The notes: a model not told the origin generated them from the sequence alone. Shown: positions 27,000 through 27,419, counted from the first letter of the stretch. The stretch is DNA of 64,000 nucleotides from Escherichia coli (GCF_001677475.2 NZ_CP015229.1); one strand, 5' to 3'. Numbers and translations: made by a program.

Positions 27000-27075
27000 G
27001 CGGGAATAGCTCAGTTGGTAGAGCACGACCTTGCCAAGGTCGGGGTCGCGAGTTCGAGTCTCGTTTCCCGCTCCA
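27000..27075 (+). tRNA. glyV: tRNA-Gly (GCC)
   Basis: 76-nt gcgggaatagctcagttggtagagcacgaccttgccaaggtcggggtcgcgagttcgagtctcgtttcccgctcca; anticodon GCC; CCA encoded. Confidence 0.97.
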
Positions 27076-27232
27076 AAATTTGAAAAGTGCTGCAAAGCAC
27101 AGACCACCCAATCGCAGTATTTCGAATTGCGACAAGGCGGCAACTGAACGAATCCTTGGGAGCTTACAAAAGTAAGTGACTAAGGTGAGTGAAGGCAGCC
27201 AAGGCAGTAGCGGTTCGAAAGACGAAGATTAA

Positions 27233-27308
27233 GCGGGAATAGCTCAGTTGGTAGAGCACGACCTTGCCAAGGTCGGGGTCGCGAGTTCGAGTCTCGTTTC
27301 CCGCTCCA
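27233..27308 (+). tRNA. glyX: tRNA-Gly (GCC)
   Basis: Identical 76-nt copy. Confidence 0.97.
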
Positions 27309-27343
27309 AAATTTGAAGGTGCTGTAAAGCACAGACCACCCAA

Positions 27344-27419
27344 GCGGGAATAGCTCAGTTGGTAGAGCACGACCTTGCCAAGGTCGGGGTCGCGAGTTCG
27401 AGTCTCGTTTCCCGCTCCA
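27344..27419 (+). tRNA. glyY: tRNA-Gly (GCC)
   Basis: Identical 76-nt copy. Confidence 0.97.

Follow-up and report, generated by a model that had tools for sequence, protein, structure and literature searches.

Architecture of the glyV-glyX-glyY array

The Escherichia coli sequence analyzed here, a stretch of 64,000 nucleotides (GCF_001677475.2, NZ_CP015229.1; hereafter the window), encodes a tandem array of three tRNA-Gly(GCC) genes, glyV, glyX and glyY, the first two of which are separated by a much longer spacer than the last two. The additional 121 nt in this spacer constitute a divergent but clear member of the ERIC/IRU repeat family, present at the same position in ten genera. The gene order around the array, orn - glyV glyX glyY - queG/datA, is that of an Escherichia/Shigella-type chromosome. 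ARAGORN and Rfam both recognized three tandem genes of 76 nt with identical sequences, separated by spacers of 157 nt and 35 nt, in full agreement with the original prediction for this locus; only the short-spacer string quoted there was incomplete, giving 34 of the 35 nt and thus being one base short. The short spacer had further been described as related to the start of the long one, and the long one as a short spacer carrying about 120 nt of extra sequence. Both descriptions hold, as the short spacer and the first ~36 nt of the long one share 85% ungapped identity (one indel and a few substitutions), the extra part measures 121 nt, and E. coli alleles lacking it have a spacer of exactly 36 nt. 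The array comprises the following features:

27000-27075, plus strand: tRNA-Gly(GCC) gene glyV (ARAGORN; Rfam RF00005, 69.1 bits; tRNA-Gly in the E. coli annotation)
27076-27232: spacer 1, 157 nt
27076-27111, plus strand: native 5' portion of spacer 1, 36 nt, equivalent to the entire spacer of E. coli genomes without the insert (aligned to the empty REL606 and 1916D6 alleles)
27087-27100, plus strand: small hairpin with a GCAA loop in the native part of spacer 1 (predicted fold)
27112-27232, plus strand: ERIC/IRU element, 121 nt (comparison with empty alleles, primer sites, covariance model R1, fold, covariation and orthologues)
27159-27191, plus strand: ERIC core within the glyV-glyX element
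27233-27308, plus strand: tRNA-Gly(GCC) gene glyX (ARAGORN; Rfam RF00005, 69.1 bits)
27309-27343, plus strand: spacer 2, 35 nt, paralogous to 27076-27111
27319-27332, plus strand: hairpin with a GUAA loop in spacer 2
27344-27419, plus strand: tRNA-Gly(GCC) gene glyY (ARAGORN; Rfam RF00005, 69.1 bits)

The extra sequence belongs to the ERIC/IRU family

The extra sequence had been described as being of unknown role; its identity is now narrowed to an ERIC/IRU repeat, while its function stays unproven. The insert can be placed at 27110-27230 or at 27112-27232, an ambiguity of 2 nt caused by the AA on either side, and its right end abuts position +1 of glyX. Reviews describe ERICs as palindromes of ~127 bp that form a long stem-loop, are extragenic and co-transcribed, occur in multiple strain-specific copies (~20-30 in K-12) and have TA termini, and class them as MITEs (miniature transposable elements with inverted repeats). 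The element in the glycine array shares this character: it is an imperfect palindrome of 121-123 bp forming one long stem-loop, its location between two tRNA genes of one operon is extragenic, with its transcription inferred from the operon, and it is multi-copy in enterobacteria and variable in presence between strains. In E. coli genomes, the median number of places with relatives of the insert is 9 (range 1-14). The terminal pairing AAUC/GAUU is present at the element ends, and TA is found on both flanks (CCTA-ATC...GAT-TAA, hyphens marking the boundaries) in Klebsiella oxytoca, K. spallanzanii, Pluralibacter and Superficieibacter.

The shared central core, GGAGCTTAC...GTAAGTGACT, includes both ERIC-PCR primer sites. 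Using primer sequences checked against published literature, the ERIC2 primer matched the insert at 19 of 22 positions (27170-27191) and the complement of ERIC1R at 16 of 22, in the correct head-to-head arrangement with ERIC2. A canonical second copy in the window served as control (sites at 51256-51299; ERIC1R 22/22, ERIC2 21/22), and a pattern search of all 64 kb returned just these two ERIC sites, with 0 expected by chance. Furthermore, a covariance model built from copies in glycine arrays only (R1) matched the canonical ERIC at 51215-51336 over its full length (57.5 bits, E = 4e-11), as well as six other ERICs not associated with tRNA genes in relatives (68-117 bits).

Other candidates for the spacer were considered and rejected. 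A tRNA pseudogene or degenerate tRNA was not recognized by ARAGORN or RF00005, which see the three intact genes only, and the sense reading frames that could constitute a conserved small open reading frame (ORF) are broken at 13-24 codons, differing between species. Rfam returned no family, rtT included, within 27076-27232 at gathering thresholds or at E ≤ 10. A scan for promoters and terminators called none inside the element, which is weak evidence since the same scan missed the real operon promoter and attenuator. The sole additional Rfam match was a sub-threshold YrlA hit over glyX-glyY, arising from tRNA-likeness.

The second ERIC of the window (51215-51400, minus strand) lies between yjfN and bsmA and has a canonical core, and at ~186 bp it contains extra structured sequence within its left arm. 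In most E. coli the span of this region is ~190 bp shorter, and in one genome it is 77 bp longer; the yjfN-bsmA ERIC thus varies between strains in length or presence.

Distribution of the element across genera

A scan for tandem Gly-tRNA genes using one genome per species, and requiring one short spacer, gave at least 48 loci. Among the 48 listed, 11 were arrays with one long spacer of 139-158 nt, and each of the long spacers contains this one element, identically oriented and with GATTAA-GCGGG as its right junction at position +1 of the tRNA. Model R1 added three copies at locus ends, in Citrobacter werkmanii, Enterobacter asburiae and K. spallanzanii. Arrays in which every spacer is filled were reached by retrieving orn neighborhoods via Orn orthologues; Salmonella enterica was found to have the element in both spacers (156 and 156 nt), and S. 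bongori in the sole spacer of a two-gene array. Altogether, full copies occur in ten genera (Escherichia, Salmonella, Citrobacter, Klebsiella, Kluyvera, Leclercia, Enterobacter, Yokenella, Pluralibacter and Superficieibacter), including non-coli Escherichia with the same junction. The outgroup families tested lacked it: in the three-gene arrays of Serratia and Photorhabdus the spacers are unrelated, and just one gene is present in Dickeya and Erwinia.

The element resides in spacer 1 in most genera, and two Citrobacter and E. asburiae have it in spacer 2. Within Klebsiella, K. oxytoca and K. spallanzanii have the full element, K. michiganensis and K. grimontii have spacers of 24-25 nt, and the 68- and 72-nt spacers of K. 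pneumoniae (L068 3692-3759 and 3836-3907; L066 3792-3859) represent an internally deleted element, which keeps both termini and the basal stem but is devoid of the ERIC core. In the K. spallanzanii copy (L036 977-1108, minus strand), 9 nt within the apical stem's 3' arm, GTGACTAAA, are tandemly duplicated, which brings the element to 132 nt. Remnants (z ~ 10) were also found immediately 5' of the first tRNA in Pluralibacter sp. (L018 5951-6003, minus strand) and in C. sedlakii (L020 8137-8174, minus strand); they are internally deleted with the same GATTAA-GCGGG junction, and both spacers of the C. sedlakii array are short. An ERIC-like leader of E. coli glyV was considered as well and rejected (local alignment against shuffles, z = 1.2, p ~ 0.14), leaving those of Pluralibacter and C. 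sedlakii as the only real remnants at this position.

Gene number varies in Salmonella, where two S. enterica assemblies encode three Gly genes and one encodes two, and both S. bongori assemblies encode two (L061-L065). This variation is consistent with unequal crossing-over between 232-bp units of tRNA, spacer and element.

The copies in glycine arrays share a mean mutual identity of 87.9% (minimum 77.3%), compared to 59-67% with other ERICs of the same genomes. They are monophyletic, and the branching within the clade is taxonomy-like, with groupings of Escherichia and Citrobacter, of Klebsiella, and of Leclercia and Enterobacter. Of eight metagenome contigs with an internal element motif, seven place the motif between Gly tRNAs. 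The motif TGAAGGCAGCCAACGCAG was rejected as a marker of the glycine-array subfamily, as it is also found in a non-tRNA ERIC of another taxon (L055), where it represents the general ERIC consensus; the clade assignment rests on whole-element identity and the tree.

Presence, absence and alleles in E. coli

The 121-bp presence/absence difference is exact when compared to REL606 and 1916D6, whose 36-nt spacer reads CACCCAA-GCGGG at the junction, and the corresponding junctions in the window and in strain 08-00022 read CACCCAA-TCGCAG...AAGATTAA-GCGGG. The whole locus was matched in 1636 of 5426 complete E. coli genomes (~30%), and the insert was found at ≥95% identity in 1605 E. coli records. K-12 derivatives and REL606 are among the ~70% of E. 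coli without the element, lacking it precisely. The nearest other ERIC in any of the 5,426 genomes is ~77% identical to the insert, and there is therefore no donor copy.

The window insert is 100% identical to the allele of 653 E. coli records, although the core genes mutL-amiB-miaA-hflX of the window (30000-36000) reach at most 98.5% identity to any of the 5,426 E. coli genomes; the window thus stems from a lineage just beyond the E. coli sampled, possibly Shigella or a divergent Escherichia. A commoner allele (~950 records, 98.3% identity) differs at positions 27162 and 27175, both in the apical stem, where a G>A change turns a G·U into an A-U pair and an A>T change breaks a U-A pair. Its predicted stability is -46.6 kcal/mol, compared to -51.0 kcal/mol for the window allele. 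Since the first change strengthens its pair and the second disrupts one, the two alleles were rejected as a compensatory pair.

Sequence constraint and RNA structure

The element shows 83-93% identity to the window copy across genera. In the same comparisons, identity was 60-70% for third-codon positions of orn, 44-79% for the operon leader, 49-64% for the upstream intergenic region, 62-71% for the datA side and 59-86% for the 5' part of the same spacer, with the tRNA genes being 100% identical in all genera sampled. The element thus evolves much slower than nearby neutral sites, and since the 36-nt 5' spacer part, which is situated between tRNA and element, diverges faster, homogenization through the tRNA genes is argued against. 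A variable, unconserved spacer without structure, named in the original prediction as the outcome that would speak against it, is the opposite of what was found, as no other non-tRNA sequence at the locus is as well conserved as the insert.

RNA structure prediction, which had also been proposed, showed the spacer to be strongly structured (-51 kcal/mol, z = -4.9). The RNAalifold consensus for the sense RNA is a single imperfect hairpin of about 39 pairs spanning 27110-27230. Covariation was assessed in a MAFFT alignment of 27 distinct sequences, as well as in an 11-sequence version. In the 27 sequences 97.5% of paired cells pair, and changes on both sides that keep pairing were found at 8 pairs (37 cells), compared to 4.1 ± 1.3 pairs in shuffled alignments (0 of 500 reached 8) and 0-3 pairs in controls with slid partners. 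The paired columns contain 69 G·U cells and only 2 A·C cells (13 pair columns with G·U, 2 with A·C), and such tolerance of G·U without tolerance of A·C points to selection on the sense RNA. The mean fold energy was -42.0 kcal/mol for the sense and -28.2 kcal/mol for the antisense strand, the sense strand being better by 13.8 kcal/mol and favored in 11 of 11 species; transcription of the tRNAs yields this better-folding strand. When the whole precursor was folded, the element had 36.7 expected internal pairs compared to 2.9 to the outside. The same fold was rejected as a test of tRNA folding, since three identical tRNAs mispair as an artefact, and only the self-containment of the element was used.

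The unpaired positions include two invariant 2x2 internal loops with 5'-GA-3' opposite 5'-GA-3', the first of which lies within the ERIC core. Loops of this kind can form tandem G·A pairs.

A segment of the element, CAACTGAACGAATCC (27141-27155), is complementary at 12 of 15 positions to GGAATAGCTCAGTTG in the 5' part of tRNA-Gly, which may be due to chance. Within this segment, GCAACTGA was invariant in the first 11 species aligned, and one A-to-G change was observed in E. asburiae.

Surroundings of the array

Two further features flank the array:

26915-26942, plus strand: putative glyV-X-Y promoter with -35 TTGCAG, a 16-nt spacer, -10 TATAAT and the GC-rich discriminator GCGCCTCCC, inferred from the sequence
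27445-27479, plus strand: weak terminator- or attenuator-like stem followed by a T-run after glyY, recognized by its sequence

The block GATTTCTCGTATAATGCGCCTCCCGT upstream of the array is conserved in all genera examined, with conservation of the promoter at 26915-26942 across genera. The generic promoter scan missed the operon promoter because the -35 hexamer fits at 3 of 6 positions only, and the generic terminator scan made no call at the stem after glyY. Both elements agree with published work, in which a single promoter, PglyV-X-Y, drives the whole operon, and TglyV-X-Y is an attenuator that overlaps a DnaA box and permits read-through into datA (PMC10950094). In the window, the stem overlaps a DnaA-box-like motif at 27438-27446 (ATATCCACA) by 2 nt, and the datA region starts here. 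Further such motifs 3' of glyY are a perfect TTATCCACA at 27505-27513, TTATTCACA at 27667-27675 and, on the minus strand, TCATCCACA at 27679-27687; the cluster at 27438-27687 corresponds to the datA locus. Strains carrying the ERIC have 121 extra bases and a strong hairpin between the glyV-X-Y promoter and datA.

The native short spacers (27087-27100 and 27319-27332 in the window, and in L004-L072) all hold a small hairpin with a GNRA-type tetraloop, the stem of which co-varies across genera: GUGCU-GCAA-AGCAC in Escherichia, GUAUC-GCAA-GAUAC in Citrobacter and Enterobacter, GUGUC-GCAA-GACAC in Pluralibacter and UGCC-GAAA-GGCA in Cronobacter. This hairpin may be a conserved processing determinant of the glyVXY operon.

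Elsewhere in the window, and unrelated to the Gly array, Rfam identified a Guanidine-II (mini-ykkC) riboswitch (12004-12050, plus strand, 49.3 bits) and an RpsF leader (59989-60073, plus strand, 110.1 bits).

Origin and maintenance of the element

We favor a reading, with a probability of roughly 0.75, in which the element is an ERIC/IRU repeat anciently resident in the internal transcribed spacer of glyV-glyX-glyY, maintained as a hairpin under selection at the RNA level and released during processing of the tRNA precursor. It would have entered the array before the ten genera diverged and have been inherited vertically since, being copied, moved and lost inside the array by gene conversion or hairpin-promoted deletion and not by repeated transposition. 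In its 5' part, the long spacer of each species is similar to that species' own short spacer, which indicates that the paralogous spacers evolve in concert. The identical tRNAs and the shared ...CACCCAA would provide homology for gene conversion from one spacer to the other, which could remove the element precisely or copy it, and slippage between the AA dinucleotides at the stem base, promoted by the hairpin, would be an alternative route to precise loss. The original prediction had portrayed the array as a duplication product in which one spacer later gained extra sequence; the reverse is probable, and the short spacers are more likely the derived state, because the element occupies the same position in ten genera and every spacer in Salmonella.

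According to the favored reading, the element would be transcribed from the glyVXY promoter as part of the tRNA precursor, and its RNA would fold on itself into a closed hairpin. The glyV-X-Y precursor is cut by direct entry of RNase E, for which unpaired spacer regions are needed (PMC4191395), and the native 36-nt 5' spacer part, with its small GNRA-type hairpin and single-stranded flanks, would stay open to this enzyme. RNase P cleavage at position +1 of glyX, two nucleotides past the hairpin base, would then free the element, so that it would be released as a by-product of the RNase E and RNase P cuts. Selection on the sense RNA would keep the 120-nt insert self-contained in an essential, untranslated and heavily transcribed operon, and a self-contained insert may avoid mispairing with the tRNAs, blockage of RNase P or RNase E, and exposure of a Rho entry site. 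Conservation of the GA-rich loops suggests that the element is also recognized, probably by a nuclease or another RNA-binding protein.

Several observations weigh against this reading or limit it. Invariant positions are no less frequent among unpaired (32 of 44) than among paired positions (46 of 74), and conservation of unpaired positions is not explained by a model in which the element must merely stay folded. The folding asymmetry is common to other ERIC copies and is therefore partly inherited from the family rather than maintained at the locus. At the left flank, the window and most other genera have CA, with the duplicated dinucleotide reading AA. Conversion between spacers does not readily account for the remnants upstream of the first tRNA. 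The tandem scan was biased against arrays with all spacers filled, missing Salmonella, and the species it listed are part of the collection, with the E. coli representative absent. The published glyVXY work that we found used K-12, which has the element-free allele (PMC10950094, PMC4191395). Finally, the element is dispensable, as ~70% of E. coli and many species are without it, and given these losses any benefit is small or conditional.

A stronger version, which we regard as unlikely, is that the ERIC has been domesticated into a conserved spacer RNA module of Enterobacteriaceae glyVXY with a host function. It could act in cis as a processing or anti-polarity element that sets the output of glyV relative to glyX and glyY as well as read-through into datA, or it could be a released, stable hairpin RNA recognized via the invariant GA-rich internal loops.

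The first-tRNA remnants leave two options, either an ancestral unit of element plus tRNA or targeting to the 5' boundary of tRNA-Gly. According to the latter, an ERIC sub-type would insert recurrently at the 5' boundary of tRNA-Gly(GCC), and the copies would be independent events. Indeed, the element or a remnant can precede the first, the second or the third tRNA on the 5' side, in every case with GATTAA directly before G(+1), and the position before the first tRNA has no upstream tRNA homology that gene conversion could use. However, the copies are monophyletic with a taxonomy-like topology, the presumed sub-type has no other copies in E. coli (with the seven of eight metagenome motif matches at Gly arrays telling the same), and the remaining ERICs of the Citrobacter genomes concerned reach just 59-67% identity. 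In addition, neither an ERIC transposase nor a target specificity is known in the ERIC reviews, and we consider recurrent targeted insertion improbable. A fourth tRNA-Gly(GCC) gene, glyW, lies outside the operon.

Slightly less probable still is a neutral passenger, conserved by homogenization via the identical flanking tRNAs or by conversion from other ERICs. The fully identical tRNA genes do constitute 76-bp homology arms, and concerted evolution is visible within the arrays, but exchange via these arms has not homogenized the spacer, in which the 36-nt 5' part (59-86%) is less conserved than the element (83-93%). ERICs elsewhere in the same genomes (59-77%) are too different to serve as conversion donors, and the 69:2 bias of G·U over A·C together with the compensatory pairs indicates selection.

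That the element is something else, i.e. a small protein gene, a degenerate tRNA or pseudogene, an internal promoter or terminator, or a site acting at the DNA level, is very improbable. Short ORFs overlap the spacer and ERICs have been reported to carry ORFs, but no ORF is conserved across species. ARAGORN and Rfam (E ≤ 10) find no tRNA-like or other family in the spacer, and the scan saw no promoter- or terminator-like site inside the element. The array adjoins datA, a protein-binding DNA locus, but the G·U/A·C asymmetry speaks against a cruciform or duplex site in DNA, which would be symmetric.

Least probable of all is a recent strain-specific transposition, in which an active ERIC jumped into the glyV-glyX spacer within E. 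coli and the empty allele is ancestral: the clean presence and absence among E. coli genomes and the classification of ERICs as MITEs with strain-specific copies would fit, but ten genera, and Escherichia other than E. coli, carry this element at an identical junction, none of the 5,426 E. coli genomes contains a donor-like copy (best other ERIC ~77%), the glycine-array copies are monophyletic and follow taxonomy, and recent horizontal transfer is contradicted by cross-genus identity falling to 83-93% in step with taxonomy.

Relation to known repeats and spacer RNAs

Compared to canonical members of the ERIC/IRU family, the copy in the Gly array has a core reading CCTTGGG/CTAAGG instead of CCCCAGG/CTGGGG, a paired change, and lies inside a tRNA operon rather than beside a protein-coding gene. 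It also represents a distinct clade at one orthologous site in ten genera under purifying selection, whereas the ERIC literature stresses copy number and location differing between species and strains. In the literature, an ERIC at glyV-glyX or adjoining tRNA genes was not found described, and neither was an ERIC inside a tRNA operon, family-wide orthologous retention or strand-specific purifying selection of one; a prior listing of the locus among 14 non-K-12 ERIC loci is possible.

In Yersinia, ERICs are reported to modulate mRNA stability in a manner dependent on orientation and on an RNase E site (De Gregorio et al. 2005, as summarized in PMC2229807, PMC3184786 and PMC10969869). These are likewise co-transcribed hairpins, and a function at the RNA level is the best-supported role of the family. 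Translation of an upstream mRNA is involved in unmasking the RNase E site in Yersinia, whereas the Gly array is untranslated and flanked by tRNAs matured by RNase E and RNase P.

Non-tRNA segments of tRNA operons that are freed by tRNA-processing nucleases can be functional, as exemplified by 3'ETS-leuZ, a decoy of RyhB, and the intergenic regions of metZ-metW-metV, which are bound by Hfq. Those segments are short, mostly single-stranded and Hfq-binding, and have known partners among small RNAs, whereas the ERIC of the Gly array is a predicted closed hairpin of 120 nt with an origin in a repeat family. The rtT RNA (Rfam RF00391) of the tyrT-tyrV operon is another repeated extra sequence released by processing of a tRNA transcript. 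It derives from 178-bp direct repeats and not from a palindromic dispersed repeat, and it has no sequence or structure match in the Gly spacer (Rfam, E ≤ 10). Small palindromic repeats tolerated in transcripts, with hairpins handled by host RNases, are also known from Correia/NEMIS elements, which are cut by RNase III, and from RPE inserts in the tmRNA and RNase P RNA genes of Rickettsia; these are other families in other hosts, and conservation at one site across a bacterial family is not described for them in our sources.

Significance

Strain typing has made use of ERIC repeats for over 30 years, yet their role and spread are unclear. The ERIC of the Gly array provides a clean handle on these questions, as it has a fixed site, family-wide inheritance, higher conservation than synonymous sites and strand-specific compensatory evolution, and as the operon is untranslated, effects on how the RNA folds and is processed can be told apart from translation. 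Natural controls are available in the ~30% and ~70% of E. coli with and without the element, in Salmonella with every spacer filled, and in the stubs of K. pneumoniae. Since K-12 is without the element, the standard model of glyVXY processing and datA read-through covers one natural allele only. As an identification the finding is ordinary, and its use lies in offering a natural test of whether ERICs serve the host; if the element were indeed domesticated, an ERIC copy would for the first time have evolutionary evidence that a role in the host is selected for.

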